Origin: Limisphaerales bacterium
GTDB taxonomy: Bacteria; Verrucomicrobiota; Verrucomicrobiia; Limisphaerales; SXTU01
Direction: 5' to 3'
Length of the DNA stretch: 64,000 nt
Assembly: GCA_009773355.1 (NCBI GenBank)
Contig: WRPG01000021.1
Location: forward strand, 2,394 to 66,393
Below the pieces are notes generated by a model. That model was given only the letters and a program-made list of their open reading frames with translations, was not told the origin of the DNA and made no database searches. A program made the position numbers and the translations under genes. How positions within the stretch are numbered: the first letter of the stretch is position 1; the number at the start of each line of letters is the position of its first letter. This document shows positions 3,087-62,719 of the stretch, piece after piece.

Positions 3087-3968
3087 ATGCACGACCCCAT
3101 CACCAAAGCCGCGACGCTGCTGGAGGCGTTGCCCTACATCCAGAAGTTCAGCCACGCCACGTTCGTCGTGAAATACGGCGGCAGCTTCATGGACTCGCCC
3201 GATTCCGCCGTGCGCAATGGCGTGGCGCGCGACGTGGTGTTCCTCGAAGCGGTGGAGATCAATCCCGTGGTCGTCCACGGCGGCGGCAAGGCCATCACCC
3301 GCGCGATGGACGCCGCCGGCTTGAAGGCGAACTTCATCCAGGGGATGCGCGTGACGGACGAGGCGACGGTCGCGGTCGTGGACCAGGTGCTCTCGCGCGA
3401 GATCAACCCGGAGATCGTCCGCACCATCGAGTCGCTCGGCGGCAAGGCGCGGGGCTTCGCCGGCACGGACATCTTCACCTGCCGCAAGCTGTGGCTCGAC
3501 GACAAGGACAAGCCGGACAGCAAGCTCGACATCGGCTACGTGGGCGAGGTCGTGGGCGTGAACACCGCGCCGTTGCTGGAGTGCATCGCGCAGGGCATCA
3601 CGCCGGTCATCAGCCCGACGGCGCGCGGCGAGGACGGGCAGATTTACAACTGCAACGCCGACGTGGCCGCCGCGCAGGCCGCCATTGCGCTCAAGGCCCG
3701 CCGTCTCGTCTTCATGTCCGACGTGCCCGGCCTCATGCGCGATCCCAAGGACCCGGCGACACTCATCACGCACCTGCGCATCGGCGACGTGCCCGCGCTG
3801 AAAGCAACGGGCGTGGTGGACAAGGGGATGATTCCCAAGGTGGACAGCGCCGTGGCGGCCATCCAGTCCGGCGTGGAGAAGGTGCAGTTTGTGGACGGCC
3901 GGCAGCAGCATTCCGTGCTGCTGGAGATTTTCACGGACGCGGGCGTGGGGACGGAAGTGGTGGCGTAG
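3087..3968 (+). CDS. argB: Acetylglutamate kinase
   Basis: MHDPITKAATLLEALPYIQKFSHATFVVKYGGS...VVVHGGG...YNCNADVAAAQAAIALKARRLVFMSDVPG, the typical ArgB/AAK fold motifs. GTG at 3030 is an alternative start. Confidence 0.9.
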   Translation: MHDPITKAATLLEALPYIQKFSHATFVVKYGGSFMDSPDSAVRNGVARDVVFLEAVEINPVVVHGGGKAITRAMDAAGLKANFIQGMRVTDEATVAVVDQVLSREINPEIVRTIESLGGKARGFAGTDIFTCRKLWLDDKDKPDSKLDIGYVGEVVGVNTAPLLECIAQGITPVISPTARGEDGQIYNCNADVAAAQAAIALKARRLVFMSDVPGLMRDPKDPATLITHLRIGDVPALKATGVVDKGMIPKVDSAVAAIQSGVEKVQFVDGRQQHSVLLEIFTDAGVGTEVVA

Positions 3969-3980
3969 CTGGTGCATTTC

Positions 3981-4015
3981 TTGACACCGCCGCCGTGTCA
4001 GACAATAAGTCAGAC
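3981..4015 (+). promoter_or_regulatory. Possible sigma70-like promoter and operator for the vapBC pair
   Basis: TTGACA (3981-3986), 17-nt spacer, AATAAG (4004-4009). Inverted repeat tgacac-N7-gtgtca (3982-4000). Direct repeat gtcagac at 3997 and 4009, immediately before the ATG at 4016 (leaderless or very short leader). Confidence 0.35.
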
Positions 4016-4264
4016 ATGCAGACGCTCACGGTTCGGGAACTCTCGCGCGAGACGGCGCGGGTGCTCAATACCTGCGACCACGAAGGCCAGGTGGTCATCC
4101 GTCACACGGATGGACGCGAATATGTGCTCGCCCCCACGCAGCCGCGCCGCAAGCGGGGCAAACGCCAGCTTCCCGACTTCGCGAAACGGCGCGAGGCCAT
4201 TTTGGGCAATCAGGTGTTCAGTGAAAAGTTCATCAACGGGATTCTCGACAAGGGCGAACATTGA
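4016..4264 (+). CDS. Type II antitoxin (Phd/YefM- or VapB-like)
   Basis: 82 aa, MQTLTVRELSRETARVLNTCDHEGQVVIRHTDGREYVLAP..., an antitoxin-like N-terminus. Stop overlaps the start of the PIN gene (TTGA at 4261-4264). Confidence 0.7.
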   Translation: MQTLTVRELSRETARVLNTCDHEGQVVIRHTDGREYVLAPTQPRRKRGKRQLPDFAKRREAILGNQVFSEKFINGILDKGEH

Positions 4265-7143: not shown

Positions 7144-7294
7144 GGCGTGGAGCGCGGCCTTCAGGCCGCAGCAGGCAGCATGGCCACAGCGCTTCCGACC
7201 ACGGGAGTCATCCGCGCGTTTCTGCGGCATGAACGCCGCGCTCCAAAGCCGGCGCTTGCCGCCCCTTGGCCGCTCCGCTACAGGTGAGCATCGT

Positions 7295-11957: not shown

Positions 11958-13292
11958 TTACGACGCCAGCAGGCGCTCCACCGTCCAGACCACGCCCGCC
12001 AGCGCGATGAGCACGCACGCAGGCCGGCGCACCCACGGACCATACCACGCGCGGTTCTCGCACCACTTCGTCGCGGCGAACGCGAGGGCGATGACGGCGA
12101 ACTGGCCAAGTTCGACACCCACGTTGAAGCAGAGCAGCGCCGTGCCGAGTTGCTCGCGGGGCAAGCCCACTTCACTGAGAACGCCCGCGAAGCCCATGCC
12201 GTGAATCATGCCGAAGCCGAACACCGCCGCCCAGCGCCACGGCGAGACTTCCGTGCGGAACAGGTTCTCAATCGCCACGACCGCGATGGACAGCGCGATG
12301 AGCGGTTCCACCACGCGTCCCGGCAGCGCGAAGATGCCCAGCACGGCGAGCGCGAGCGTGATGGAGTGCGCGAGCGTGAACGCCGTCACCTGCCACAGCA
12401 GCGGCTTGAGCTTCGGGCTGAGGAGGAAGAGGCCGAGGACGAACAGGATGTGGTCGAGGCCCTTGGGCAGGATGTGCGTGAAGCCGAGTTCGATGAACTG
12501 CCACGCCGTGTTCCCACGCACGGGCGCAGGAGTTGTCCCGCTTTTCCCCGGCGGACCGGCCGCAGCATCCGCGCCGCGCGTGTCCTCCTGAAACGCGTCG
12601 AGGTCTATCACCATCGCCTGCCGCGACTGCACGAGTTGCAGGACAGGTGGGACGCCTTGGCCGCGATGAAACAGCACTTCAAACAGCGCGGCGAAACCGA
12701 CGGTGTTGTAGAGCGAGAGGGACAGTTCCAGTTCCTTCGCCGTCGCTGGGATGTCCCAGCGCAGCGTGAGCGGCAACGGCGCGGGAATCACTTCGCCGGG
12801 CCGTTCCTCGCGGGTCAAAGTGAGCTGCGCGGGTGGCCAATTCGAGAGCACGCCGCGCACGGGCGCGTTGGTGTCGAGCGCGAATCGGACGCGCGTCTGG
12901 ACGTAGTCCGCGATGCGCGGCGCGAGCGTTCGCACCTCGGCCTCGGTCATCAGCACGACGGCGTCGTTCGTCCTCGCGTTGAGGAACTGAAGCAGGTCCG
13001 GCTGGTTGAGCTGGAAGGTGAGCGTGAGGGAATTCGTCGTGAGCTGCGCGTCCACGCGCGTGAGCGAGGCGGTGTGAGCGGAGGCGGAGGCCGAAAGAAT
13101 CGAAAAGAGCAGCAAGGCGAACAGCCTGTGCAGCCACCGGTCGGCCGATTTTTTGACTCCCTCTCCCTTTGCGAAGCAAGGGGAGAGGGCCGGGGTGAGG
13201 GGTTGGCTCCTTCGGCGCAAGAGGCCGCTCCCCTCATCCGGCCTTCGGCCACCTTCTCCCCTCGCTCCGCGAAGGGAGAAGGCTCGGATCAT
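11958..13292 (-). CDS. HupE/UreJ-family membrane protein (N-terminal periplasmic domain + HupE_UreJ_2 TM domain); start codon uncertain
   Basis: GFTHILPKGLDHILFVLGLFLL, FGFGMIHGMGFAGVL and CFNVGVELGQ match HupE/UreJ signatures. Likely signal sequence LHRLFALLLFSILSASASA has no ATG/GTG directly upstream. The nearest ATG (13292) lies inside the repeat cluster. Confidence 0.7.
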   Translation of the reverse strand: MIRAFSLRGARGEGGRRPDEGSGLLRRRSQPLTPALSPCFAKGEGVKKSADRWLHRLFALLLFSILSASASAHTASLTRVDAQLTTNSLTLTFQLNQPDLLQFLNARTNDAVVLMTEAEVRTLAPRIADYVQTRVRFALDTNAPVRGVLSNWPPAQLTLTREERPGEVIPAPLPLTLRWDIPATAKELELSLSLYNTVGFAALFEVLFHRGQGVPPVLQLVQSRQAMVIDLDAFQEDTRGADAAAGPPGKSGTTPAPVRGNTAWQFIELGFTHILPKGLDHILFVLGLFLLSPKLKPLLWQVTAFTLAHSITLALAVLGIFALPGRVVEPLIALSIAVVAIENLFRTEVSPWRWAAVFGFGMIHGMGFAGVLSEVGLPREQLGTALLCFNVGVELGQFAVIALAFAATKWCENRAWYGPWVRRPACVLIALAGVVWTVERLLAS

Positions 13293-13455
13293 TGCGCTGC
13301 CTGGACATCTGATGCGTTCTCCCTCACCCCGTCCCTCTCCCGCTGGGAGAGGGAGGATTACAGCCCGCTGCGGCGACAGGTCAGTGCGCTGCGTGAAGAC
13401 GAATGCGCTCGTGGCTGTTCCCTCTCCCGGCGGGAGAGGGTCAGGGTGAGGGGGA
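13159..13455. repeat. Cluster of four GGGAGAGGG-type hairpin repeats (REP-like)
   Basis: ccctctccctttgcgaagcaaggggagaggg+ccggggtgagggg (13159-13203); ccttctcccctcgctccgcgaagggagaagg (13252-13282); ccctcaccccgtccctctcccgctgggagaggga (13321-13354, opposite orientation); tccctctcccggcgggagagggtcagggtgaggggg (13419-13455). Confidence 0.8.
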
Positions 13456-13465
13456 AAGGCCGCGC

Positions 13466-19119: not shown

Positions 19120-19240
19120 CCCGCCTGGGCGAGCCAGCCGGATCAAGGCCGGGGCGGCCGGTCACCGCACCTGCGCGGAGAGCCTGGAGCAGGCGGTTCC
19201 CGAGGGGACGGCCAAGGCGAGAGCCAACGAGCTGCCAAGG

Positions 19241-19407
19241 TCCGCGATTTCGGCCCTTGAACCTGCCCAGCGGATGGAGCGCGGGACTCCGGCCCGCAGC
19301 GGCCACCTCAACCCGGGGGGCGCTGCGGATATTCGCACGGTGGCTGGCGCAAGTTGCCGCTGCGGCCCGGAGGGCCGCGCTCCGGTTCAGGGGCCGAAAT
19401 CGCGGGA
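19241..19407. repeat. Long imperfect palindrome (~167 nt) in a 400-bp intergenic gap
   Basis: tccgcgatttcggcccttgaacc...gagcgcgggactccggcccgcagcggc pairs with gccgctgcggcccggagggccgcgctccggttcaggggccgaaatcgcggga. About 50 bp of potential stem. Confidence 0.65.
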
Positions 19408-19518
19408 GTTTGGGGATCGTGGATTCTCTCCCCAACCCCCTCCTCCCTCCGAGGGCGGAGCGGAAGTCCACCCGCTGGCGATGGGGCAGGATGCGCCCCG
19501 GTCGGACAGCCGCAACGG

Positions 19519-29029: not shown

Positions 29030-29106
29030 GGTAGCAGCCGACGTGAGGAGGCTCTGATTCACTGGAGAATCGGATTGAAGTGAGCCTCCTCACGTCGGCT
29101 GCTACC
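29030..29106. repeat. Perfect 25-bp-arm palindrome (family shared with 41622-41692)
   Basis: ggtagcagccgacgtgaggaggctc - 27-nt loop - gagcctcctcacgtcggctgctacc, in the divergent intergenic region. Confidence 0.9.
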
Positions 29107-29178
29107 CGGAAATGCGCGCGCTTGCCCGGCGCGGATTTGCCCTCCACGATTCCGCCAGTTCAAACGTCCATCTCTGCC

Positions 29179-32100
29179 ATGAGCCAACGTCTCTGCCTGT
29201 TCCTCGCCGCGCTTGCCACCGCGCTTCAGCCGCTGCGCGCGCAAGACGCCGCCAAGGAAGCCCAGTTCCTCACCAACACGCGCCAACTCATCTTCGAAGG
29301 CCGGCGCAGCGGCGAAAGCTACTTCTCGGCCGACGGCAAGTTCATGGTCTTTCAGAGCGAGCGCGAGGCGGACAATCCCTTCTACCAGATTTACCTGCTG
29401 AACCTGGAGACCGGCGACGTGAACCGCGTCTCACCCGGCACCGGCAAGACCACCTGCGCCTTCCTCCGCCCCGGCAGCGACGACGTGCTCTTCGCGAGCA
29501 CCCACACCGATCCTGAGGCGAAGACCAAGCAGAAGGCCGAGTTCGAAATCCGCGCTTCCGGCAAGTCCCGCCGCTACGCGTGGGACTACGACGACCGCAT
29601 GGAAATCTTCGTGTCCAAACGCGACGGCTCGAACATCCGCCGGCTCACCGACGCTCCCGGCTACGATGCCGAGGGCAGCTACTCGCCGGACGGCAAGCTC
29701 ATCGTCTTCTGCTCGCTGCGCCATGCCTACACCGGCACGCTCTCGCCCGAGGACAAGAAGAAGCTCGAAGTGGACACCGCCTACTTCGGCGACATCTACC
29801 TGATGAACGCCGACGGCTCGAACGTCCGCCGCCTCACCAGCACCCCCGGCTACGATGGCGGGCCGTTCTTCTCCCCCGACGGCCAGCGTGTCATCTGGCG
29901 GCGATTCAACGAGAAGGGCGACACGGCGGACGTCTACACGATGAAACTCGACGGCTCCGACGTGCGCCGCCTCACCGACTTCGGCGCGATGTCCTGGGCG
30001 CCCTACTTCCACCCGTCCGGCCAATACGTCATCTACACGGCGAACAAGCACGGCTTTGGCAACTTCGAGCTGTTCCTCGTGGACGCTCTCGGCGCGAAGG
30101 AACCCGTGCGCGTGACCCACACCGACGGCTTCGACGGCCTGCCGGTCTTCTCCCCCGACGGCAAGAAACTGGCGTGGACCAGCGGCCGCACGCCGGAGAA
30201 AAACTCGCAGGTCTTCATGGCGGACTGGAACCACACGGCGGCGCTGGCGGCACTGGCACAAGCGCCGAAGCGGAGCGGAACCACGCCGGAGCTGTCACTG
30301 CAGAGAATCAAGGCTCAGGGTTTGATCAGCGTTGGGGCCCTTACCGCAGAGAGTCTTCTTCAACTCCAAAGTTATAATCCGGAAATACGTGAAGCGGATT
30401 TGCGTGGCCATGTTGGGTTTCTCGCCAGCGAGTCACTCCAAGGTCGGCTCACGGGCTCGCTCGGCGCACTAAAAGCCGCTAACTACATAGCCGAAAACTT
30501 CAAGCTCTCCGGCCTTGCTCCACTCCCGTCCGTCAGCGACTTCTTCCAACCCTTCGAGTTCAGCTCCGGCGTCCGAGTGCTGACGAATCAGAATACCGCC
30601 TCGCTCCGTGCCAGCGCTAATGCCACGCCCGCCACGCTTGCACTCGACAAGGACTTCCGCCCCCTTGCCTTCACGGCGAACGGCACCGTGGAGGGGGAAG
30701 TCGTCTTCGCCGGCTACGGCCTCTCCGTGCCTGGCAAGCTCGGGGAAGGCTATGACTCTTACAACGGCCTCGACGTGTCGAACAAGGTCGTGCTCGTGCT
30801 GCGTTACGTGCCGGAGGAAGCCGACGCCAAGCGCCGCCAGGAGCTGAACCGCTACGCCGGCCTGCGCTACAAGGCCCTCATTGCGCGCAATCGCGGCGCG
30901 AAAGCCCTGCTCGTCGTCACCGGCCCCACGTCCCCGAACGCGGGCGAACTGGCGCGGCTGACCTTCGAGACCGGTGCGAGCCACAGCGGCATCGTCTGCG
31001 CCAGCATCGGCGGCGACGTGGCGGCGAAGATGTTCACTGCCGCGGGCAAGGATTTGAAGAAGACGCAGGCCGCGCTCGACAAGGAAGACCCGCACGCGGA
31101 AGGAGCTTTCGCGCTGAAGAACGTCGCCGTGAAGCTCACCGCCGCCGTCGAGCATGTGAAGAAGGCGGACCGTAACGTCCTCGCGCACATCCCGCCTGTC
31201 GGCACCAAGGAGTATGTCATCGTCGGCGCGCATTACGACCACCTCGGCCACGGCGAGACCGGCGGCTTCGCGCGCAAGGACGAGGAAGGCAAGGTCCACC
31301 CCGGCGCGGATGACAACGCCAGCGGCACCGCCGCGCTGCTCGAACTCGCTGGAGCGCTAGCCGAAGAATTTCGGAGCGCAGGTGTCCAACCTGCGTCCGG
31401 TTCCAGCGCGCCGAAAGCCGTGGCAAACGCAGGTTGGACACTTGCGCTCCGGCGCGGCGTGCTCTTCGCCGCCTGGTCTGGCGAGGAAGTCGGCTTGATC
31501 GGCTCCTCGCACTTCGCCGAGAAGCCGCCGCTCCCGCTCTCGAACGTCGTCGCCTACGTGAACTTCGACATGGTCGGCCGCCTGCGCGACAACAAGCTGA
31601 GTCTCCAGGGCATCGGCTCCTCCCCTACGTGGCGGAAGCTGATCGAGAAGCGCAACGTCGCCGCCGGCTTCAATCTGGCCTTGCAGGAAGACCCGTATCT
31701 GCCCACCGACACCACGCCCTTCTATCCGAAGAACGTGCCGGTCATCGCCTTCTTCACCGGCAGTCACGAGGAGTATCACCGGCCCGCCGACAAGCCCGAC
31801 ACGCTGAACTACGACGGCCTCGAACGCATCGCCAAGTTCGCCCGCGCCCTCATCACCGACCTCGCCTCGGGTGCCGAGCGCCCGGCCTACGCGAAGGTCG
31901 AGAAGAAGGACGGCGGCGGCGGCCGCGAGCAGCTCCGCGCCTACCTCGGCACCATCCCCGACTACGCTCAGGAAGTAGCCGGCGTGAAGCTGAGCGGCAC
32001 CCGCGGCGGCAGCCCCGCCGACAAGGCCGGGCTGAAGGGTGGCGACGTCATCGTCGAATTCGCCGGCCAGAAGATTGCCAACATCTACGACTACACCTAT

Positions 32101-32199
32101 GCCATCGAGGCCGTGAAAATCGGCCAACCGGTGAAAATCATCGTCCTCCGCGACGGCAAACGCGTGGAACTCACCGTGACGCCAGAGGTGCGGAAGTGA
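29179..32199 (+). CDS. Secreted TolB-like beta-propeller / M28 aminopeptidase / PDZ fusion protein
   Basis: Signal peptide MSQRLCLFLAALATALQPLRAQ. PD40-type repeats (YFSADGKFMVF, SYSPDGKLIVF, FFSPDGQRVIW, VFSPDGKKLAW). M28 motifs VGAHYDHLGHG, HPGADDNASGTAALLELA, SGEEVGLIGS. C-terminal PDZ GSPADKAGLKGGDVIVEFAG. Confidence 0.85.
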   Translation: MSQRLCLFLAALATALQPLRAQDAAKEAQFLTNTRQLIFEGRRSGESYFSADGKFMVFQSEREADNPFYQIYLLNLETGDVNRVSPGTGKTTCAFLRPGSDDVLFASTHTDPEAKTKQKAEFEIRASGKSRRYAWDYDDRMEIFVSKRDGSNIRRLTDAPGYDAEGSYSPDGKLIVFCSLRHAYTGTLSPEDKKKLEVDTAYFGDIYLMNADGSNVRRLTSTPGYDGGPFFSPDGQRVIWRRFNEKGDTADVYTMKLDGSDVRRLTDFGAMSWAPYFHPSGQYVIYTANKHGFGNFELFLVDALGAKEPVRVTHTDGFDGLPVFSPDGKKLAWTSGRTPEKNSQVFMADWNHTAALAALAQAPKRSGTTPELSLQRIKAQGLISVGALTAESLLQLQSYNPEIREADLRGHVGFLASESLQGRLTGSLGALKAANYIAENFKLSGLAPLPSVSDFFQPFEFSSGVRVLTNQNTASLRASANATPATLALDKDFRPLAFTANGTVEGEVVFAGYGLSVPGKLGEGYDSYNGLDVSNKVVLVLRYVPEEADAKRRQELNRYAGLRYKALIARNRGAKALLVVTGPTSPNAGELARLTFETGASHSGIVCASIGGDVAAKMFTAAGKDLKKTQAALDKEDPHAEGAFALKNVAVKLTAAVEHVKKADRNVLAHIPPVGTKEYVIVGAHYDHLGHGETGGFARKDEEGKVHPGADDNASGTAALLELAGALAEEFRSAGVQPASGSSAPKAVANAGWTLALRRGVLFAAWSGEEVGLIGSSHFAEKPPLPLSNVVAYVNFDMVGRLRDNKLSLQGIGSSPTWRKLIEKRNVAAGFNLALQEDPYLPTDTTPFYPKNVPVIAFFTGSHEEYHRPADKPDTLNYDGLERIAKFARALITDLASGAERPAYAKVEKKDGGGGREQLRAYLGTIPDYAQEVAGVKLSGTRGGSPADKAGLKGGDVIVEFAGQKIANIYDYTYAIEAVKIGQPVKIIVLRDGKRVELTVTPEVRK
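31373..31450. repeat. 78-nt palindrome embedded in frame in the M28 peptidase gene (family shared with 45382-45448)
   Basis: ggagcgcaggtgtccaacctgcgt - loop - acgcaggttggacacttgcgctcc (1 mismatch in 24). Encodes RSAGVQPASGSSAPKAVANAGWTLAL between the conserved ADDNASGTAALLELA and FAAWSGEEVG blocks. Confidence 0.85.
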
Positions 32200-33024: not shown

Positions 33025-33034
33025 CGGCGGGGGC

Positions 33035-33129
33035 AGTATTCAGTAATCAGCGTTCAGTTTCCAGTAGGCAGTTTCCTGAGGTCGCACGGCTTGCCGCCAC
33101 TGAACACTGAAAACTGCTTGCTGAATACT
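33035..33129. repeat. Heptamer-periodic hairpin in a divergent promoter region
   Basis: Left arm tattcag taatcag cgttcag tttccag taggcag (NNNNcag x5). Right arm tgaacac tgaaaac tgcttgc tgaatac (tgNNNNc x4; with the preceding c each unit reads ctgNNNN). The arms are imperfectly complementary. Confidence 0.75.
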
Positions 33130-33186
33130 TCCTTGCTGGCCGCTGATTGCTAACCGCTCCCTCCCCGCCTACTCTGCTCACCAGCG

Positions 33187-35990: not shown

Positions 35991-36671
35991 ATGGCAAAGA
36001 TATTGGTCGTGGATGACGAACCGGATGCCGTTGAACTGGTCGAGTTCAACTTGAAGAACGCCGGCTTCGAGGTGGTCACGGCGGCGGATGGCGCAGAGGC
36101 GCTCAAGAAGGCGCGCGCGGCGCTGCCCGATCTCATCGTGCTGGACCTGATGATTCCCGAGGTGGACGGCTTGGAGGTGTGCAAGCTGCTGCGGCGCGAC
36201 GCGGCCACGGCGGGTATCCCCATTCTCATGCTCACGGCGAAGGCGGCGGAGATTGACCGTGTGCTGGGCCTCGAACTCGGCGCGGACGATTACGTGACCA
36301 AGCCGTTCAGCCCGCGCGAGCTGATGCTGCGCATCAAGGGCCTGCTGCGTCGCCGCGAGACGACCGAGGCCAAGGCGGAGCGGATGCAGTTCGGCGACCT
36401 TGTGCTCGACGTGCCCGCGCACAGCCTCACGGTGAACAACAAGCGCGTGGAGCTGACCGCCACGGAGTTCAAGCTGCTCACCATCCTCGCGCAGCGGCGC
36501 GGCCGGGTGCAATCGCGCGACCAGTTGCTCAAGGACGTGTGGGAATACGACAACGTCATAGACACGCGCACCGTGGACACGCACATGCGGCGGCTGCGGG
36601 AGAAGCTGGGCAAGGCGGCGAAGCACTTGGATACCGTGCGAGGGGTCGGCTATCGCTTTGTGGCGGGGTGA
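35991..36671 (+). CDS. OmpR/PhoB-family response regulator
   Basis: MAKILVVDDEPD...DLIVLDLMIPEVDG...LTAK (REC) and winged-helix output LTATEFKLLTILAQRRGRVQSRDQLL...VDTHMRRLREKL...VRGVGYRF. Confidence 0.9.
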   Translation: MAKILVVDDEPDAVELVEFNLKNAGFEVVTAADGAEALKKARAALPDLIVLDLMIPEVDGLEVCKLLRRDAATAGIPILMLTAKAAEIDRVLGLELGADDYVTKPFSPRELMLRIKGLLRRRETTEAKAERMQFGDLVLDVPAHSLTVNNKRVELTATEFKLLTILAQRRGRVQSRDQLLKDVWEYDNVIDTRTVDTHMRRLREKLGKAAKHLDTVRGVGYRFVAG

Positions 36672-36749
36672 GACGTAATGCGTAATGCGTAAAACGTAAG
36701 GGCCACCGGCGCTCGACGCCCTGCTTGGTTACGTTTTACGTTTTACGTC
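36672..36749. repeat. cgtaaNN/NNttacg heptamer hairpin between response regulator and kinase genes
   Basis: cgtaatg cgtaatg cgtaaaa cgtaagg - 25-nt spacer - ggttacg ttttacg ttttacg. Starts 1 nt after the regulator stop codon. Confidence 0.85.
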
Positions 36750-36778
36750 TCCCCTCCTTCCCAGCCATTCTCCACCCG

Positions 36779-40981: not shown

Positions 40982-43900
40982 TCAGCCTTTTGCAATCATC
41001 TCGTCGAGGTTCAAAAGCGCGCGGGCGAGGGCGGTCCAGGCGGCGCGGTCGTTGGCGTCGCCATCGCCTTTGCCGGCGAAGTCGGCGGCCTTGAGTTCGC
41101 CGCTGGCGAAGCGGGCGCGTTGGGTCTCGAAGAACTTCACGAGTTGGGCGCGTTCGTTGGCAGTGGGCGGGCGGGTGAGGCAGCGGCGGAAGAGGGTTTC
41201 CACACGGGTCTCGATGCTGCCGGGCTGCGCGGCGAGCTGGCGGCCGAGGGCTTGGGCGGCTTCGAGGATGACGGTGTCATTGAGCAGGGTGAGCGCTTGG
41301 AGCGGCGTGTTCGAGACGTCGCGGCGGGCGACGCAGGCTTCGCCGCTGGGGCCGTCGAAGGTGTTGAACATCGCGTAGGGCGCGGAGCGTTTGGCGAAGG
41401 TGTAGAGGCCGCGGCGGTAGCGGTCTTCGCCCTTGCTCTCGTCCCATGACTTGCCGCCATACACGCCTTCCTGCGTGACGCTCGCGGGCTGCGGCGGGAA
41501 GACGCTCGGCCCGCCAATCTTCGGCGAAAGCAGCCCGCTCGCGCGCAGGACGGAATCGCGGATGAGTTCGGCGTCGAGGCGTGAGCGGGGGAAGCGGGAG
41601 AGCAGGCGGTTGTCGGGGTCGGTAGCCGCCGAGGTGAGGAGGCGGATTGGTGGCGTGGAAGGTTCAGTCCGCCTCCTGACCTCGGCGGCTACAGCGCTGC
41701 TCTGCTGGTAAGTGGCGCTGGTCACGATGAGCTTGTGCAACAGCTTCAGCGACCAGTCATGCTTCATGAACTCCACCGCCAGCCAGTCGAGCAGCTCCGG
41801 GTGCGTCGGCGCGTCGCCTTGCAGACCGAAGTCCTCGGTGGTGCGCACGAGGCCGCGCCCGAAGAACGCGGCCCACTGGCGGTTCACGGTGACGCGCGCA
41901 GTGAGCGGGTTCTCGGGCGAGACGAGCCATTGCGCGAAGCCGAGGCGGTTCTTTGGGGCGGCGGCTGGCAATGGGTTCAAGACGCCGAGCACGGTGGGCG
42001 CGACGGCTTCCTTCGGCGACAGAAACTCGCCGCGATGATGGCGGTGCGTGGGGCGCGGGTTCTCCAGCGGGCGCTCGCGCAAGACGAGGGTGGTCTGGTG
42101 GACGGGCGGTTTGCGCAAGCGCTCGATTTCAGCCCGCGCGGATTTCAGCTCGGGCGCGACGAGGAGGAATTGTTCGCGGAGCTTGGCGCGTTGGGCGGTG
42201 GTGAGTTGCGCCTCGGGCACGCGGAGCAACGCCTCGGCCTCCTCGGTCAACTCACTGGCGGCGGCCTGCGCTTCGGTCGTGGCGGAGAGGCGGAACCGGC
42301 CCAGCGAACAGGCGTAATGGCGGCCAAACTGAAGCAGCACTTCAAGGTCGCCAGTCGCTGCGAGCGGTTGGTCGAAGTGGAAAACCGCGACGTGTCGTTC
42401 GCCAAAGCGCTCGAAGACACCCCAACCCGTTTCGGGGTTGCCATCAATCGCCAGCGCTGCGGACGACCTGTCACCGCCGAGCCAGAGCTTCGCATAGGTC
42501 TGTGATGCCCGGGCGAGCTTCACGGGCTGGCTGGCTGCCTTCACGCGGAATTCACCGAGGAAGAAATCGCCTTTGGGACCTTCGTAATACGCCATGCCTG
42601 GCCCGTGCGCGGGCAGGCGGTCGTCGGGCAAGGCTTCGAGGCGAAGCGCGGCGGTTCCGGCTAGAACGCTCTTGAAGCGAAGTGTGTAAGTGTCGTTCTT
42701 GCTGATGTCTCCGCTCGCGAAGATGGAGCTGTCTGGCTGCACCGTGAGGAGCGGGAGGTTGGACTTGGCTTCGTCGGGGCGGAGTGTCGTCCACGTCACG
42801 ACGCGGGCGCGCTCGGCTTTGAGCCATGTGGCAAATCTCCTTTCCAGATGCTTGGCTCCCGGCACCGGCGGAGTGGAGTTTGTGTCCGCCGGAAACTGTC
42901 TCGGCAGCCCGGCCAGCAGGGTGGCGGCGCGCTCCAGATTCTTGCGGTGCAGTTCATCCAGCGCCGCGTCGGGCAGGTCCTGGTCCGGCTCGTCGGCGTT
43001 GTTGAGGAAGGCCATCACGCCGTAATACTCCGTCTGGGGAATGGGATCGAACTTGTGCGTGTGGCACTGCGCGCACATCAGTGTCAGGCCCAGCCAGGTT
43101 GTGCCGGTGGTGGCCACGCGGTCGGCCATCGCGTAGAAGCGGAACTCCAGCGGGTCAATGCCGCCTTCCTCATTCAGCATCGTGTTTCGGTGGAAGCCCG
43201 TCGCGACGAGCGGGTCCAAACCTTGAACCTTGAACCTTGAACCTTGAACTGCTGGCAAGAGGTCGCCGGCGAGCTGCTGGATGGTGAACTGGTCGAAGGG
43301 AAGGCCCTCGTTCAGCGCGCGGATGACCCAGTCGCGCCAAGGCCAAATGTTGCGCGGGCGGTCTTTCTCGTAGCCGTTGGTGTCGGCGTAGCGGGCGAGG
43401 TCGAGCCACTTGCGCGCCCAGCGTTCGCCGTAGTGCGGGGAGGCGAGCAGTTTGTCCACGAGCGCGGCGATGACCTTCAGCTCACTTTCCCGCCTTCTCA
43501 CCTGCCCACTTTCGCCGGCAGCCGGTGAGAAAGTGGGAGAGCGGGAAAGTGAGAGCTGGCGCACGAAGTCATCGGCTTCCTCCGGCGTCGGCGGCAGGCC
43601 GATGAGGTCGAGGTAAAGGCGGCGGACGAGCGTGTAGTCGTCGGCGGGTGGCGACGGCTTCAAGCCTTCCTTCTCCAGCCGCGCGAGGATGAAGTGGTCA
43701 ATGGCGTTCTGCGGCCAGCCGGCTTGCTTCACCTTCGGCAATGCAGCCTGCTTCGGTTTGATGAACGCCCAGTGCGGCTGGTAATCCGCTCCGGAGGCGA
43801 CCCAGCGGCGGAACGTGTCCATCTCGGCGGGCGTGAGGTGCTTCTTCGTCTCCGGCGGCGGCATGACCTTGTTGTGGTCGGTGCTGGTGATGCGGCGGAC

Positions 43901-44158
43901 GAGTTCGCTCTGGTCGGGCTTGCCGGGGACGAGGGCGCGCTTGCCGGACTTGGCCGGCTTGAGCGCGGCCTCGCGGAGGTCGAGGCGGAGGCCGGCCTTG
44001 CGCGCGTGTTCATCCGGCCCGTGGCAGGCGAAACACTGGCGAGAGAGAATGGGGCGGACATCGCGCTGAAAATCCGGCGCGGGCGCGGCGGCGAAGATTG
44101 GTAGCGCGCCCAGCAGGGCGGCGAAAGCGGTGGCAAATGGTTTCACGCGGCGAATCAC
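40982..44158 (-). CDS. PSCyt1-DUF1549-DUF1553 (PSD1) protein
   Basis: GTG start at 44158 gives MIRRVKPFATAFAALLGALPIFAAAPAP. Heme-like CFACHGPDEH. DUF1549 block LVRRLYLDLIGLPPTPEE. DUF1553 block CAQCHTHKFDPI. The longer ORF to 45046 overlaps the ApbE gene and is R/A/P-rich. Confidence 0.85.
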   Translation of the reverse strand: MIRRVKPFATAFAALLGALPIFAAAPAPDFQRDVRPILSRQCFACHGPDEHARKAGLRLDLREAALKPAKSGKRALVPGKPDQSELVRRITSTDHNKVMPPPETKKHLTPAEMDTFRRWVASGADYQPHWAFIKPKQAALPKVKQAGWPQNAIDHFILARLEKEGLKPSPPADDYTLVRRLYLDLIGLPPTPEEADDFVRQLSLSRSPTFSPAAGESGQVRRRESELKVIAALVDKLLASPHYGERWARKWLDLARYADTNGYEKDRPRNIWPWRDWVIRALNEGLPFDQFTIQQLAGDLLPAVQGSRFKVQGLDPLVATGFHRNTMLNEEGGIDPLEFRFYAMADRVATTGTTWLGLTLMCAQCHTHKFDPIPQTEYYGVMAFLNNADEPDQDLPDAALDELHRKNLERAATLLAGLPRQFPADTNSTPPVPGAKHLERRFATWLKAERARVVTWTTLRPDEAKSNLPLLTVQPDSSIFASGDISKNDTYTLRFKSVLAGTAALRLEALPDDRLPAHGPGMAYYEGPKGDFFLGEFRVKAASQPVKLARASQTYAKLWLGGDRSSAALAIDGNPETGWGVFERFGERHVAVFHFDQPLAATGDLEVLLQFGRHYACSLGRFRLSATTEAQAAASELTEEAEALLRVPEAQLTTAQRAKLREQFLLVAPELKSARAEIERLRKPPVHQTTLVLRERPLENPRPTHRHHRGEFLSPKEAVAPTVLGVLNPLPAAAPKNRLGFAQWLVSPENPLTARVTVNRQWAAFFGRGLVRTTEDFGLQGDAPTHPELLDWLAVEFMKHDWSLKLLHKLIVTSATYQQSSAVAAEVRRRTEPSTPPIRLLTSAATDPDNRLLSRFPRSRLDAELIRDSVLRASGLLSPKIGGPSVFPPQPASVTQEGVYGGKSWDESKGEDRYRRGLYTFAKRSAPYAMFNTFDGPSGEACVARRDVSNTPLQALTLLNDTVILEAAQALGRQLAAQPGSIETRVETLFRRCLTRPPTANERAQLVKFFETQRARFASGELKAADFAGKGDGDANDRAAWTALARALLNLDEMIAKG
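41622..41692. repeat. 25-bp-arm palindrome inside the DUF1553 coding region (same family as 29030-29106)
   Basis: gtagccgccgaggtgaggaggcgga - loop - tccgcctcctgacctcggcggctac (1 mismatch). Translated as AAEVRRRTEPSTPPIRLLTSAAT. Confidence 0.85.
43221..43248. repeat. Four tandem ccttgaa heptamers inside the DUF1549 region
   Basis: ccttgaa x4 read directly. Translated as VQGSRFKVQG just before the conserved ATGFHRN block. Confidence 0.85.
43478..43558. repeat. 81-nt imperfect palindrome inside the DUF1549/DUF1553 gene
   Basis: cagctcactttcccgccttctcacctgcccactttc ... gagaaagtgggagagcgggaaagtgagagctg. ctcactttcccgc pairs with gcgggaaagtgag. Translated as QLSLSRSPTFSPAAGESGQVRRRESEL. Confidence 0.7.
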
Positions 44159-44201
44159 GACGGGAGAATAGACGAGTGGAAGGCGCGAGGGAATGCGTGA
44201 A

Positions 44202-44297
44202 AGTAGGACAGCGCGCCCCGCCTGTCTGTCTGACTGAAAGCTTCCGCTTGAGCGGGCGAAACTAGATGGTAGGTCAGGCGGGACGCGCTGACCTACT
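44202..44297. repeat. ~95-nt palindrome-ended element, copy A of 3
   Basis: agtaggacagcgcgccccgcctgtc...ccgcttgagcgg...gtcaggcgggacgcgctgacctact. The TAG stop of the ApbE gene (44293-44295) lies in the terminal arm. Confidence 0.85.
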
Positions 44298-45372
44298 TGT
44301 CGTAGAAGCGTGCGAAGCTCGGCGACTCCGAGACTTCGACGCGTTCGCCGGGCTTGCGGACGACGCGGGCGGATGCACCGGGCGTGCCGTTCACTAATGC
44401 CAACCCGCGCTCTGGGCCGACTACGCACGTCGTCGTGGAGAGGCTGTTCGCCGTCACGCAATCGCGCGCGATGACCGTCACGAGGCTGTGGTCGGTCATG
44501 CCCAGGCCCGTGTGCGGGTCCACGATGTGGGAGTAGCGCTTGCCGCCCAGCTCGACGTGCTGGAACAAATCGCCGGAGGTCGCGAAGCCGCAGTTGCGGA
44601 GCGAAAGGAACTGCGTGGGCGGGGCACCGGGCGCGTCGAGCGGCGCGAGCTCGATGCGCCAGCCGGTGCGACCCGGCGGCGGGTCGCCGAGAGCCATGTC
44701 GCCGCTGCCGGTGACGAGCGCGCGGGGGATGCCGTGACTGCGTAACTCGCGAAGCGCTTCGTCGAGCGCACGTCCCTTGGCGATGGAGCCGAGGTCGAGG
44801 CGCATTCCTGACACGAGCAGCTTCGCGGTGTGCGCGCGCGGGTCGAGGACAACCTTCTGCCAGCCGACACGGGACTTGGCCTCCGCGATGACTTCGGGCG
44901 TGGGCAGTTCGCGCTGTCGCCGCGCGCGTCGCCAAACTTGCACGAGGGGACCGACGGTGATGTCGAACGCGCCGTCCGACCGTCGCGACATGGTTTCCGC
45001 TATGTTCAGCAGGCGCCATAACTCGTCGCTCACGGGCACAGCGCAACCGCTGCCGGAGCTGCGGGACAGCAGGGTCAACTCGCTGTCATCCTCGTAGTCG
45101 CTGAAGACTTGGTTCAGCTCCGCGACGCGGGCGAAGGCGGCGCGGGCAGCGGCTTCAGCGAGGCTCGGACTCTCCGCATACAACACGATGCGGAAGGGCA
45201 GGCCCATCTGCGGCTGCTCGAACTCGAAGCGTTGGAGTGCCGATGGCGATGTGGTGCGGCAGGCATTCGCGCCAAGCAACGCGAAGGGGAGCAGGAGCAG
45301 GCTGGCGCGGCGTGATTGAAGGTGTGCGTCGGCGTGCGTCTCGGTCCGTCCCCTCACCCCGGCCCTTTCCAT
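44293..45372 (-). CDS. apbE: FAD:protein FMN transferase (ApbE family)
   Basis: AFDITVGPLV, LDLGSIAKGRALD and YSHIVDPHTGLG are ApbE signatures. ATG at 45372 (MERAGVRG...LLLLPFALLGANAC). Confidence 0.85.
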   Translation of the reverse strand: MERAGVRGRTETHADAHLQSRRASLLLLPFALLGANACRTTSPSALQRFEFEQPQMGLPFRIVLYAESPSLAEAAARAAFARVAELNQVFSDYEDDSELTLLSRSSGSGCAVPVSDELWRLLNIAETMSRRSDGAFDITVGPLVQVWRRARRQRELPTPEVIAEAKSRVGWQKVVLDPRAHTAKLLVSGMRLDLGSIAKGRALDEALRELRSHGIPRALVTGSGDMALGDPPPGRTGWRIELAPLDAPGAPPTQFLSLRNCGFATSGDLFQHVELGGKRYSHIVDPHTGLGMTDHSLVTVIARDCVTANSLSTTTCVVGPERGLALVNGTPGASARVVRKPGERVEVSESPSFARFYDK

Positions 45373-45381
45373 GAACCGGAT

Positions 45382-45448
45382 GGAGCGCAGGTGTCCAACC
45401 TGCGCGAGGTAACCGGACACGAACGCGCAGGATGGACTCCTGCGCTCC
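45382..45448. repeat. Palindrome of the ggagcgcagg-gtcca-cctgcg family (intergenic copy)
   Basis: ggagcgcaggtgtccaacctgcgcg - loop - cgcgcaggatggactcctgcgctcc. The first 22 nt are identical to the left arm of the copy inside the M28 peptidase gene (31373). Confidence 0.85.
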
Positions 45449-45594
45449 GGCTCAGGGGCCGAACTCGCGGCCAGCGGCGGGCCGTTGGTTCTCCCCCCCG
45501 GTGGGGGCGAGGGGGAAGAGGCCGGGGGCCGCACAGGGCCGTTTTCCGGCTGGCCGCAAGGCGCGGTGCGGCTATGCTGCCGGGAGGAATTCAT

Positions 45595-46461: not shown

Positions 46462-46494
46462 CACAGGAAAGGAACCGCAATGTCGGCACTTTGA

Positions 46495-46588
46495 AGTAGG
46501 ACAGTGCGTCCCGCCTGTCTTTCTGATTTCAGATCCCGCTCAAGCGGTTTCCTTCAAATGGTAGGCAGGCTGGAAGCACTGTCCTACT
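46495..46588. repeat. ~95-nt palindrome-ended element, copy B of 3
   Basis: agtaggacagtgcgtcccgcctgtc...ccgctcaagcgg...ggcaggctggaagcactgtcctact. The TAG stop of the 46584..48002 gene lies in the terminal arm. Confidence 0.85.
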
Positions 46589-48002
46589 TAACGAACGCGT
46601 AGAGTGCCGTGAGCGTGCGGACGTATATCACGTTTTCCACCAGCGCGGGCGAGGCGGAGATGCGTTCGCTGAATTCCGCCTGGTGCAGAATCTTCGGCGC
46701 GTCGCCGCCGGCATCGAGGACCGTGACCTTGCCGTTCAGCGACGCCACGTAGATGCGCCCGTCCGCCGCGACGGGCGACGCGTAGTAGCTGCCGATGGCG
46801 TTGAGCCGCTCCTGCTGGTAGTGGACCTTGCCCGTCTTCGCGTCGAAGCTCGACGCCAGCCCGCCGTCCTTCACAAGGAAGACGCGGCCGCGATAGTGCA
46901 GCGCCGACGGCACGTAGGGCAGGCCGCGCGTCTGCTTCCACGCCAAGGCGTCCTCGCTCAACTCGCCCTTGCCGCCGGGCTTCACGGCCACCAGCACGTT
47001 CTCGCCCTTGGCCATGTTGGCCGCCAGGGCATCCATGTCTTCTTTGGTGATTTTGCCGTCGCGGTTCACGTCCAGCGAGCGGAAGAACGATTCCATCTCC
47101 GTGCCCTTCATCTCGTCCGGCGTGAGCGCGCCGTCCTTGTTTTTGTCCATCTGCGACATCCCGGCCCACGTCGGCATCGTGTTGGCCTCCTTGCCCGGTG
47201 CCCAGCCGGCGAAGAAGAGCAGGCCGTCGCCGACCACCGGAGTTGTGCAGGTGAAGGACGGCAAGCCCGCCAGCGACCACCGTTCCGCGCCGGTCTTGAG
47301 GTCATAGGCCTTGAGCTTGATGGAGCCGGACATGACGACCTCGTCCACGCCCGCGCTCTTCCAGAGAATCGGCGTGCCGAAGCCGGGACCGACATCTGTG
47401 CGCGGGGCTTCCCATGCTTTCTTGCCGGTCTTCAAGTCCACCGCCAGCAGCGAGCAAGGCCCGGCCTGGTCGCGGTTCACGAGCACCACGCCGCCCGCGA
47501 GCACGGGCGAACCGCCGGAGCCGAAGCTGCCGGGCGACTGGATGGTCGGGAGCTTGTGCTGCCAGAGTTCCTTGCCGCTGAAGTCGTGGGCCACCAGCCC
47601 GGACGAGCCGAAGTAACTGATGACGGTCTTGCCATCGGTTGCGGGAGTGGATGCGGCGGGGCTGCCCTCGGTGGCGTGGAATTCTTCAAGCTGCCCGGCG
47701 GGCGCGGGGCGCTTCCAGAGCAGCTTGCCATCGCGCCGCGCGTAGCAGTGCGTCTCCAGCTTCTTGCCGTCGAAGGTCGTGAGGAAAATCCGGTCGCCCC
47801 ACACGCACGGCGAGGACGCGCCCGAGGGCACGATGTTTTTCCAAAGCTGATTCTTGCCAGGGCCGAACTCGACGGGCGGCTTGGCGGTGTCGGAGACGCC
47901 GGACGCGTTTGGCCCGCGGAACTGCGGCCACCAGGTTTCGGCGGCGAAGAGCGCGGTGTGGACAACGAAGCAGAGGGTGAGGAACAGGGTTTTCACTTTC
48001 AT
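46584..48002 (-). CDS. PQQ-like (BamB-type) beta-propeller protein with an inserted EF-hand pair
   Basis: Signal peptide MKVKTLFLTLCFVVHTALFAA. Repeated propeller strands (SSPCVWGDRIFL, GSPVLAGGVVLV, TTPVVGDGLLFF, ASPVAADGRIYV). Canonical Ca-binding loops DKNKDGALTPDE and DVNRDGKITKED. Confidence 0.8.
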   Translation of the reverse strand: MKVKTLFLTLCFVVHTALFAAETWWPQFRGPNASGVSDTAKPPVEFGPGKNQLWKNIVPSGASSPCVWGDRIFLTTFDGKKLETHCYARRDGKLLWKRPAPAGQLEEFHATEGSPAASTPATDGKTVISYFGSSGLVAHDFSGKELWQHKLPTIQSPGSFGSGGSPVLAGGVVLVNRDQAGPCSLLAVDLKTGKKAWEAPRTDVGPGFGTPILWKSAGVDEVVMSGSIKLKAYDLKTGAERWSLAGLPSFTCTTPVVGDGLLFFAGWAPGKEANTMPTWAGMSQMDKNKDGALTPDEMKGTEMESFFRSLDVNRDGKITKEDMDALAANMAKGENVLVAVKPGGKGELSEDALAWKQTRGLPYVPSALHYRGRVFLVKDGGLASSFDAKTGKVHYQQERLNAIGSYYASPVAADGRIYVASLNGKVTVLDAGGDAPKILHQAEFSERISASPALVENVIYVRTLTALYAFVK

Positions 48003-48079
48003 GGCGGCGGGATTATGCGGAAGGACGCGCGGGAGGCAAGTGTGCGGCGGTGGCATGATGGCACTTTTCGAGTTGCTCA

Positions 48080-48174
48080 AGTAGGACAGCACGTCTCGCC
48101 TGTCCCTCTGACTTTCTGTTTCCGCTCAAGCGGGGCGTTTCAAATGGAGGACAGGCTGGAAGCACTGTCCTACT
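48080..48174. repeat. ~95-nt palindrome-ended element, copy C of 3
   Basis: agtaggacagcacgtctcgcctgtc...ccgctcaagcgg...gacaggctggaagcactgtcctact. Ends 1 nt before the TGA stop of the PfkB kinase gene. Confidence 0.85.
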
Positions 48175-48175
48175 T

Positions 48176-49197: not shown

Positions 49198-49298
49198 GAC
49201 GGAATGCGTAATGGGTAATGCGTAAAACGTAAGGCGGGCGTTTGAACCCGTGACGCGCGTGGTGACTGGGTTACGCATTACGTTTTACGTTTTACTCC
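49198..49298. repeat. cgtaaNN/NNttacg heptamer hairpin
   Basis: cggaatg cgtaatg ggtaatg cgtaaaa cgtaagg - spacer - ggttacg cattacg ttttacg ttttact. Fills the whole gap between two co-oriented genes. Confidence 0.85.
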
Positions 49299-49299
49299 T

Positions 49300-50478
49300 T
49301 CACCACTTGTAGCGCGGTTCGGGGTTCGGGTCGCCGATGTCGGGGATGTCCTTCGTCGCGGTGCGGCCGTGCAGCGTTTCCAGCTTGTGGAAGAGGTGAT
49401 GGAGGAAGGCCACGTTGTCACACTGCGCGTAGTGCATCGCGCCGCCCATGCGCGAGAAGCTCTTGCAGAAGCGGAGGTAGTAGGCCGGGTTGTCGCGTGG
49501 CGGCTCGCCCTGGGTCCAGTCCCAGTTGCCGCCGTCCTGCAAGTCCACGACGTAGATGCTGTGGCCGCTGACGATGGGGCGGCCCGCTTGCAGGCGGAGG
49601 TTGTTCACGCAACTGATGCTCTTCTCGAATACCTGCGGCCCCATGATGGCCGAGCCGACGCTCAGCACCACGCCGCCATCGAGCTTCTCCACCGAGCCGC
49701 CGAACAGCGCGAAGTCCACGCCCGCCGCGCGACCGATGACGCCGCCGTTGAACCAAGGGTGGTTCGAGATGATGTCGTAGCCGATGCCGGGGTGGACGGT
49801 GAAGGGCACTTCGTGCCGCGCGGCTTGAGCAAGCACGCTGCTGTTGCGGTGCGGGTGCGCGACGATCTGTGGGCCTGGCTTGAGTCCGAAGCGCTGGATG
49901 GCTTGCAGCAAGTCCGCGCGCGCGGGCGTGAGCGGGTGGCCCGGCTCGGCTTGAATTTGCTTTGTCAGCTCGGCCTCGGTCGGGATGAAGCCGCCGTCCT
50001 CGTAGATGAACTTGCCGAGCGATTTGCCGTAGCCGAAGCCGCGCACGCCGCCGAGCAGCAGCGCGAGGTGGATGTAGCGCCCCGTCTCGTCCCAGGTGCC
50101 GAAGCTGCCGGTGGCGACGTTGTCACGCACGCTCTCGGTGGAGCGGCCCAGCCAAGAGAACTCCCAGTCGTGAATCGTTCCGGCACCGTTCGTTGCGAGG
50201 TGAGTGAGGAATCCGCGGTCGAGCATCTGGCCGAGCAGGAGTTGCCCACCGTTCTTCACGAGATGCGCGCCGTAGATGAACATGACCGCCGCGCCACGCT
50301 CGAGCGCGGCCTTGATGTCGCGGGCGCAGCGCTCGATGAGCGCGGCGTTGAAGTCGCTGACGGGCGGTGGCGTGTTCGTCGGCTCGATGAGCACCTCGTC
50401 CACCGTGCTCAGGCTTTTGCGCTGCGCGAGCGGGAACACGCGGACTTTGGAGAGGTCGAGAGGGTCGGGAGATTGCAT
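49300..50478 (-). CDS. Deoxyhypusine-synthase-like family protein (distant, tentative)
   Basis: ATG at 50478 (MQSPDPLDLSKV...). AAVMFIYGAHLVKNGGQLLLGQMLDRGFLTHLATNGAGTIHDWE parallels the DHS block FLGYTSNLISSG...VDVLVTTAGGVEED. VPFTVHPGIGYDII and GVVLSVGSAIMGPQVFE parallel later DHS blocks (from memory). Confidence 0.45.
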   Translation of the reverse strand: MQSPDPLDLSKVRVFPLAQRKSLSTVDEVLIEPTNTPPPVSDFNAALIERCARDIKAALERGAAVMFIYGAHLVKNGGQLLLGQMLDRGFLTHLATNGAGTIHDWEFSWLGRSTESVRDNVATGSFGTWDETGRYIHLALLLGGVRGFGYGKSLGKFIYEDGGFIPTEAELTKQIQAEPGHPLTPARADLLQAIQRFGLKPGPQIVAHPHRNSSVLAQAARHEVPFTVHPGIGYDIISNHPWFNGGVIGRAAGVDFALFGGSVEKLDGGVVLSVGSAIMGPQVFEKSISCVNNLRLQAGRPIVSGHSIYVVDLQDGGNWDWTQGEPPRDNPAYYLRFCKSFSRMGGAMHYAQCDNVAFLHHLFHKLETLHGRTATKDIPDIGDPNPEPRYKW

Positions 50479-62640: not shown

Positions 62641-62719
62641 CGCGTGATGCGTAAGACGTGAAACGTAAAACGTATGGGTGTTGGGCGTCCGCTTACGTTT
62701 TACGCATTACGCATTACGC
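62641..62719. repeat. cgtaaNN/NNttacg heptamer hairpin
   Basis: cgtgatg cgtaaga cgtgaaa cgtaaaa cgtatgg - spacer - gcttacg ttttacg cattacg cattacg. Confidence 0.85.

Follow-up and report, generated by a model that had tools for sequence, protein, structure and literature searches.

A probable in-frame insertion of a REP doublet in an M28 peptidase gene of a Limisphaerales bacterium

How does a 78-nt palindrome, of which a close twin lies in an intergenic region, come to sit in frame within the M28 peptidase domain of a protein-coding gene? The question is raised by a 64,000-nt stretch of contig WRPG01000021.1 from a Limisphaerales bacterium (the window), in which the palindrome at 31373-31450 was picked out from the letters of the sequence and taken for a frame-preserving insertion (the original prediction). 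We find that the palindrome is a REPIN, that is, a doublet of repetitive extragenic palindromic (REP) units forming a hairpin, and that it belongs to a family abundant in Limisphaerales and other Verrucomicrobiota. Very probably it represents an in-frame insertion in a permissive loop of an M28 peptidase gene that is still functional.

The inverted repeat extends over 31372-31396 and 31427-31451, with 25-nt arms complementary at 24 of 25 positions (96%) and separated by a 30-nt spacer. The REPIN core, a REP doublet with its heads pointing outward, covers the 78 nt from 31373 to 31450, and pairing reaches one base beyond it on each side (31372/31451). The left REP unit (31373..31396, plus strand) consists of the head GGA (31373-75), the stem half GCGCAGGT (31376-83), the loop GTCCA (31384-88) and the stem half ACCTGCGT (31389-96). 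It is followed by the spacer (31397..31426), which varies among family members, and by the right unit, an inverted copy on the minus strand (31427..31450). The sole arm mismatch, T31442, gives the codon CTT and hence Leu; the close relative L003 has a C at this position, making a perfect palindrome and encoding Pro. A hairpin of -58.5 kcal/mol is predicted for 31373-31450 (z = -6.0 relative to shuffled sequences). The core amounts to 26 codons in frame within the open reading frame (ORF) 29080..32199, and there is no stop codon in any reading frame of the G+C-rich element. Its sequence, its 26 residues (RSAGVQPASGSSAPKAVANAGWTLAL) and its position, which is spanned by the Pfam M28 match, are all as the original prediction had them. 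An Rfam scan of the whole window gave no family at the gathering score, the generic miRNA-precursor hairpin matches lying far below threshold, so that a known structured RNA at the palindrome was rejected, and no terminator or promoter signal was found at the site.

The twin is an intergenic REPIN of the same subfamily (45382..45448, 67 nt), with arms of 25 nt each (45382-45406 and 45424-45448) that are 92% complementary, a 17-nt spacer and a predicted hairpin of -49.7 kcal/mol (z = -7.2 relative to shuffles). It lies 9 nt upstream of the ATG of apbE (minus strand) and is also upstream of the MscS gene, so its placement between these two genes was correct. The identity between its left arm and that of the coding copy is likewise real, and extends over 23 nt rather than the 22 nt originally given. 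The 23-mer GGAGCGCAGGTGTCCAACCTGCG has exactly four matches in the window at up to three mismatches, namely the four arms of both palindromes; 0.01 matches would be expected by chance, and four were reached in none of 100 shuffles.

The arm is not confined to these two palindromes. When one genome per species was scanned for a degenerate form of the arm, at least 76 loci were obtained, almost all of them in metagenome-assembled genomes (MAGs) of Verrucomicrobiota, and among the loci listed there were 41 full palindromes and many single units. In metagenomes, the exact 23-mer was present in 63 contigs, where 41 elements were inverted doublets (62-120 nt, mode 67) and 24 were singlets; 63 of these 65 elements were not within confidently coding sequence. 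The insertion claim had been made to depend on the existence of such further copies. The repeating unit consists of the head GGA and an 8-bp stem, GCGCAGGT/ACCTGCGC, around the loop GTCCA, and is found both as singlets and as dimers. A hairpin of at least 6 bp follows GGAGCGC in 23% of its occurrences, compared with 2% for control heptamers. Pairing is kept in 39 different stem/loop combinations after GGAGCGC, many of which hold GTCCA while both stem halves covary. The spacer between the units is variable, and neither a target-site duplication nor a target consensus was seen in the flanks of the 57 copies inspected. Head-plus-hairpin units, doublets, multiple copies and the lack of duplications are the anatomy of REPs and REPINs, the latter being known as REP doublets that form hairpins (PMC3116915). 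The arm unit has the short head and the hairpin-forming palindrome, within 20-40 nt, that characterize a REP, the element at 31373-31450 consists of two inverted REPs and a spacer folding into one hairpin, and the family is repetitive and mostly extragenic in the window (three of its four GGAGCGC-family copies being intergenic), at the genome loci and among the metagenome elements. The terminal GTAG (or GYAG, GTRG or GTGG) by which GTAG REPs are defined is lacking, the head reading (A/C)GGAG; other repeat families in the window do begin with GTAG.

The gene that carries the coding copy (29179..32199, plus strand) encodes a 1006-aa protein (P0001) combining a PD40 beta-propeller, an M28 metallopeptidase and a PDZ domain. 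Pfam places PD40, Peptidase_M28 (PF04389, 136 bits, residues 699-924) and PDZ in the ORF 29080..32199, and a 100% identical public protein of 1006 aa, annotated in a Limisphaerales MAG, starts at 29179. Just upstream of this start there is a perfect GTAG-family palindrome with 25-nt arms (29030-29106, GGTAGCAGCCGACGTGAGGAGGCTC...), which produces a spurious N-terminal extension, 'MSLLTSAAT', in the mechanically called ORF. Since the identical host protein is found on six contigs that were assembled independently (ENA, Logan and NCBI), the palindrome is not an assembly artefact.

The polarity of the event is seen in an alignment of 120 homologues sharing 63-100% identity with the window protein. 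The spacing between the metal-ligand blocks DDNASG and SGEE is 37 aa in about 105 of the 120 (those 63-88% identical) and 38-40 aa in a few, whereas 56 aa is found only in the window protein and in a relative 91% identical to it. No distant M28 protein among them carries the same 26 residues. Because the state without the insert, in which the loop is native (SQRTNPVAF, for example), reaches to the most distant homologues, it is to be regarded as ancestral, and on this alignment the coding copy is an insertion that preserved the frame, as had been proposed. The proposed addition of 26 codons needs correction: the 26 element-encoded residues are present, but they stand in place of about seven native loop residues, so that the net gain is 19 codons.

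What the insert does to the peptidase was considered from a model and from substitution rates. In an AlphaFold model of the full host protein (82-sequence alignment, mean pLDDT, the predicted local confidence score, 80), a helix starting at DDNASG (710-733) is followed by a coil (734-759) and a strand (760-766) leading to E769-E770. The insert corresponds to residues 732-757 and is modeled as a low-confidence loop, with pLDDT below 50 at 740-753 as against about 89-95 in the adjoining helix and strand. In M28 enzymes the helix after DDNASG runs outward from the di-metal site, to which the strand then returns, which would put the insert loop on the far side from the metal site. The original prediction proposed modeling to see whether the 26 residues form a surface loop; they are modeled as a loop, its surface position being likely from topology and pLDDT. 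H685, D687, D711/D712, E769/E770, D797 and H867 are invariant in all 82 sequences, including the window protein. We take these, from what is known of the M28 family, to be the co-catalytic metal ligands and the general-base Glu, and the host protein has the full M28 set of His, Asp, Glu, Asp and His ligands plus the general-base Glu. The ratio of nonsynonymous to synonymous substitution rates (dN/dS) of the host gene is 0.12-0.24, with 0.14-0.24 for insert-bearing pairs and 0.15 between two empty orthologues. The reading frame is intact, the enzyme appears to be under purifying selection with the insert in place, the gene looks functional, and the protein is probably active.

A candidate for the mobilizing enzyme is found in relatives. 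A tblastn search in which an E. coli RayT sequence served purely as a probe gave a single match, in the related contig L060, between two GGAGCGC-family palindromes. The ORF scores 81.8 bits on the NCBIfam equivalog NF047646, 'REP-associated tyrosine transposase' (RAYT; cutoff 80), and 32 bits on Pfam Y1_Tnp (PF01797, cutoff 23). REPINs flank it on both sides, with arms corresponding to the exact window 23-mer and to the variant at 45426-45448, and its homologues are numerous in Verrucomicrobiota. One of them, P0241 in the related contig L090 (75% identical to the L060 RAYT), is likewise flanked by the exact 23-mer, so that in both contigs a RAYT gene is flanked by its own REP. Another RAYT, P0257 in the Limisphaerales MAG locus L088, is flanked by GGAGCGCAGGCGGCTCGCCTGCG, which equals the arm of the M28 insert of L007 at 21 of 22 positions. 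The copy in the window may thus be presumed to have been moved by a RAYT.

L007 is one of several relatives in which the same loop of the M28 gene holds a different REPIN. Allele W (window and L003) has a 78-nt core with the arm GGAGC-GCAGGT-GTCCA-ACCTGC, allele B (L004, L006 and L008) a 99-nt core with the arm GGAGC-GCGGGT-GTCCC-ACCCGC, and allele C (L007) a 123-nt core with the arm GGAGC-GCAGGC-GGCC-GCCTGC. All three are near-perfect palindromes in the same reading frame with junctions 1-3 codons apart, and each represents a REP subfamily that is multi-copy elsewhere. The B-type inserts are orthologous, having junctions and spacer in common. Whereas the synonymous divergence (dS) of the gene among these three is 0.41-0.45, their arms differ at 0-2 of 50 positions, where about 16 differences would be expected at the synonymous rate (P <= 6e-7), and their spacers at 5-11 of 49 (arms versus spacer, Fisher P = 2e-4 for L004 vs L008). 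Between W, B and C there are three differences per arm, each matched in the opposite arm, and the spacers differ too. Near-invariant arms within the B trio together with three paired differences per arm between W and B argue against gradual drift and for independent insertion or wholesale replacement at one site. In the protein tree, insert-bearing proteins are monophyletic in none of 100 bootstraps, but the clade has a star-like shape, the native loop alleles are scattered as well and recombination is evident, so that the tree does not discriminate between a single insertion and several. Spacer likeness was rejected as a sign of common allele origin, the motifs GGAAYT and CCAAAA being common family-wide. 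The idea that coding copies have lengths divisible by three holds for the M28 alleles (78, 99 and 123 nt) and is contradicted by further in-frame copies of 67 and 71 nt; intergenic dimers are without length bias, 15 of 41 being divisible by three.

The explanation that we consider very probable is that of an in-frame REPIN insertion. The REP family would most likely be mobilized in trans, as single-stranded DNA, by a Y1/HUH transposase of the RAYT type, and one copy would have entered the loop of the M28 gene between the helix after the metal-bridging Asp (DDNASG) and the strand toward the catalytic Glu-Glu (SGEE). Since the element has no stop codon in any frame and its junctions are in frame, the gene encodes 26 element-derived residues for about seven native ones. 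These residues may make up a flexible loop where the helix ends, far from the metal site, while the enzyme would remain under purifying selection.

Several points weigh against this explanation or limit it. The missing native residues mean that the alignment does not present a clean 78-nt addition, and its present state does not match simple cut-and-paste into a loop that was left intact. No RAYT gene was found by tblastn within the 64-kb window, and the cognate transposase is shown in related contigs only. The head is GGAG rather than the canonical GTAG/GTRG. The solvent exposure of the insert loop is likely on the grounds of topology and pLDDT only. Finally, three subfamilies at one site and the strong arm conservation in the B trio are unexpected of passive junk, and hint at targeting, replacement or selection.

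From this last point a more far-reaching idea can be formulated, which we put forward tentatively and regard as rather doubtful: coding REPINs might not be inert, several REP subfamilies repeatedly landing in, or replacing one another at, a few permissive loops, where the arms would be kept near-invariant because the hairpin is under selection or because they go on interacting with the RAYT and the REP pool of the genome, while the spacer drifts. If so, coding REPINs would be live members of the REPIN population and a cassette-like source of variation in the loops of exported enzymes. A related alternative, which we think unlikely, is that the REPIN arrived as a mobile element and is now retained for a function, be it an mRNA hairpin acting on stability or causing a translational pause between folding units, a binding site for the RAYT or another protein, or a useful peptide loop. 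Such an exaptation would account for the very few differences in the B-type arms at a dS that predicts about 16, against up to 11 of 49 in the spacer, and it agrees with the high stability of the hairpin (-58 kcal/mol) and with the persistence of the insert in several lineages. However, most orthologues do without the insert, the spacer and the loop peptide are free to change, the site has no terminator- or promoter-like signal and no Rfam family, and the arm conservation could equally stem from homogenization against the REP pool of the genome.

Another possibility, to our minds quite improbable, concerns the route of entry: recombination or gene conversion could have brought the element in from a different REPIN locus, or it could have replaced an older insert, via the GGAGCGC ends or microhomology. 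The loss of about seven native residues at the junctions would be explained in this way. W, B and C share the GGAGCGC ends and the frame and yet differ in paired arm positions and in spacer, and as the arms drift very slowly, wholesale replacement fits better than change in situ. The native gene moreover has a GGAGCGC 17 nt upstream, and it is mosaic between close relatives. Compared with L003, the M28 gene (region 29079-30539) is 94% identical for its first 1.16 kb, does not align at 30242-30539 and is 98% identical thereafter. This mosaic identity and the scatter of native loop alleles over the protein tree suggest recombination within the gene. Nevertheless, neither the window nor the fetched loci yielded a donor locus having this spacer, and recombination bears on the entry route only, a REPIN family being required all the same.

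We regard as very improbable that the element is a miniature inverted-repeat transposable element (MITE) derived from an insertion sequence (IS) and moved through its terminal inverted repeats by a DDE transposase. It is short and non-coding and has long terminal inverted repeats, as a MITE would, but there are no target-site duplications at the 57 copies inspected (no search was made for a partner IS), the arms are REPs in their own right, with head and hairpin, which exist as singlets too and whose stems covary, and RAYT genes are flanked by the same REP. Finally, an origin in place by hairpin-templated duplication, or an assembly artefact, can practically be dismissed: template switching can make palindromes and metagenome assemblies can be chimeric, but the identical protein is present on six independently assembled contigs and the same arm at many unrelated loci.

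The M28 gene is not the only one to have acquired such an insert; in-frame REP insertion is general in these genomes. In the window itself, the minus-strand ORF 40982..45046 contains at 41622-41692 a GTAG-headed REP dimer (GTAGCCGCCGAGGTCAGGAGGCGG...CCGCCTCCTCACCTCGGCGGCTAC, 71 nt) in frame, which encodes VAAEVRRRTEPSTPPIRLLTSAAT within a DUF1553/PSD1 protein, in the context SS-AVAAEVRRRTEPSTPPIRLLTSAAT-DPDN. The TYQQSS-to-DPxN spacing of this protein is 31 aa, compared with 17 aa in 77 of 78 homologues. A third palindromic family is represented by the intergenic element at ~33031-33130 (CAGTATTCAGTAATCAGCGTTCAGT...ACTGAACACTGAAAACTG, -41.7 kcal/mol); another member of this family lies in frame at the same DUF1553 loop in the orthologue P0123 of L156 (QYPVFSGQSSV...TENWKLKTEN). 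Arms of the GGAGCGC family are translated in the linker of a PSCyt/DUF1549/DUF1553 protein (L018, a Pedosphaera MAG), in a DUF7133 cytochrome c protein (L032, L040 and L064), in a PhoPQ-related protein, after the signal peptide (L039), and in a sulfatase (L122). The L018 protein also has a long insertion (~50 aa vs 17) at the TYxxSS-DPxN site, its Pfam PSD1 match being split in two. L027 and L060 were rejected as intragenic copies because the arms lie upstream of the true start codons, and L107, in which no Pfam family matched, is a candidate only.

Two further intergenic copies in the window have GGAGCGC...GCGCTCC ends and other inner stems, GGAGCGCGGCCTTCAGGCCGC at 7149..7244 and GCGGGACTCCGGCCCGC at 19276..19383, the latter between convergent genes; both stems differ from that of the 31373 copy yet are internally complementary. 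The copy at 19276-19383 is nested in an outer palindrome (19216-19431) with 48-nt outer arms, and its right flank, GGTTCAGGGGCCGAAATCGCGG, is almost repeated directly after the twin, at 45449-45470 (GGCTCAGGGGCCGAACTCGCGG). The nesting and the near-repeated flank indicate that some copies belong to a larger composite repeat, of which the M28 copy is the core only. Elsewhere, a 105-107-nt class of the GGAGCGC family (L013, L015, L022, L025, L041, L067, L078, L086, L087 and others) combines two unlike REP arms with a conserved spacer and, across species-level MAGs, with conserved sequence beyond the ends in several of them (CCCAAATGGAAC ... GTCTCCAAA); it is part of a larger conserved unit and has no Rfam match. 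In L013, three arm matches in direct orientation lie 211 and 422 nt apart at 3384-4038 and one more is found at 6822, an arrangement suggestive of REP units clustered in tandem. Contigs L020, L024, L032, L040, L044, L075 and L079, labeled as Klebsiella, Akkermansia muciniphila, Bifidobacteriaceae or Prevotellaceae MAGs, carry this REP together with genes typical of the Planctomycetes-Verrucomicrobia-Chlamydiae (PVC) group and are probably mis-binned or mislabeled.

Other repeats of the window stand apart from this family. Two palindromes of another GTAG-like family (AAGTAGGACAG...CTGTCCTACTT) at 46494-46589 and 48079-48175 bracket the gene 46584..48092, and inverted repeats built from heptamers of the ACGTAAA/ACGCATT type are present at 36661-36767, 49207-49305 and 62649-62719. 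Palindromes or motifs CCCTCACCCC / GGGGTGAGGG with GGGAGAGGG, at 13181-13456, 45340-45360 and 45490-45530, apparently make up one more repeat family.

How, then, does the M28 insert compare with systems already described? The Rickettsia palindromic elements (RPEs) of Ogata et al. (2000), the classic example of in-frame palindromes, reportedly lie in frame in functional protein genes, adding a peptide compatible with the fold. RPEs are about 100-150 bp long and their host is an AT-rich obligate intracellular alphaproteobacterium; for most of them, we know of no established link to a RAYT. The likeness, an in-frame palindromic insert that adds a peptide, is functional only; RPEs are longer, presumably of an unrelated sequence family, and from a different host lineage. 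RAYT-associated REPINs are the closer match, with two inverted REPs and a variable spacer, a long hairpin, multiple and mainly extragenic copies, singlets as well as doublets, compensatory stem changes and a RAYT gene flanked by its own REP (as in L060 and L090). The present copy differs in its head, GGAG(C) for GTAG, in its Limisphaerales host, in being intragenic and translated, and in the lack of a RAYT in the 64-kb window. Di Nocera et al. (2013) described REPs lying wholly within ORFs, more than half of them dimers or groups encoding 20-30 aa, and in their survey of intragenic REPs the GTAG count was highest in the verrucomicrobium Opitutus terrae, while in Xanthomonas recB different REPs were found at about the same site (PMC3733652). 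Those GTAG/CGTC REPs resemble the M28 insert in being dimers within ORFs, in encoding 20-30 aa, in being recognized against shorter homologues and in coming from the same phylum, and differ in REP family and head and in host gene, which is a DNA repair or RNA gene there and one for a periplasmic-type peptidase here. Three subfamilies at one loop and a measured arm conservation likewise set the present case apart. In-frame insertion has also been reviewed for bacterial MITEs, including ERIC, Correia/NEMIS, Nezha and others (PMC10969869), which are, like the M28 insert, small non-autonomous palindromic repeats that are sometimes intragenic, but their IS-like terminal repeats and target duplications are not seen here.

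In-frame REP insertion is therefore an already known type of event in bacteria, including Verrucomicrobia, and the finding opens no new class of system. What it adds to the known REPs is a GGAG-headed family with RAYTs in Limisphaerales. The extra 19-26 residues of the M28 peptidase are repeat-derived and no new functional motif, and peptides such as 'RSAGV(P/Q)PA', 'AGWTPAL' and 'GAQVSNLR' in Verrucomicrobiota proteins are REP translations. With empty and filled orthologues, three subfamilies occupying a single loop and arms that stay conserved where dS is ~0.4, the locus offers a natural test case that bears on the targeting of sites by REPINs and on their maintenance after entry into a gene, and its importance could rise from the repeated occupation of a single loop and from how strongly the arms are conserved in coding sequence.

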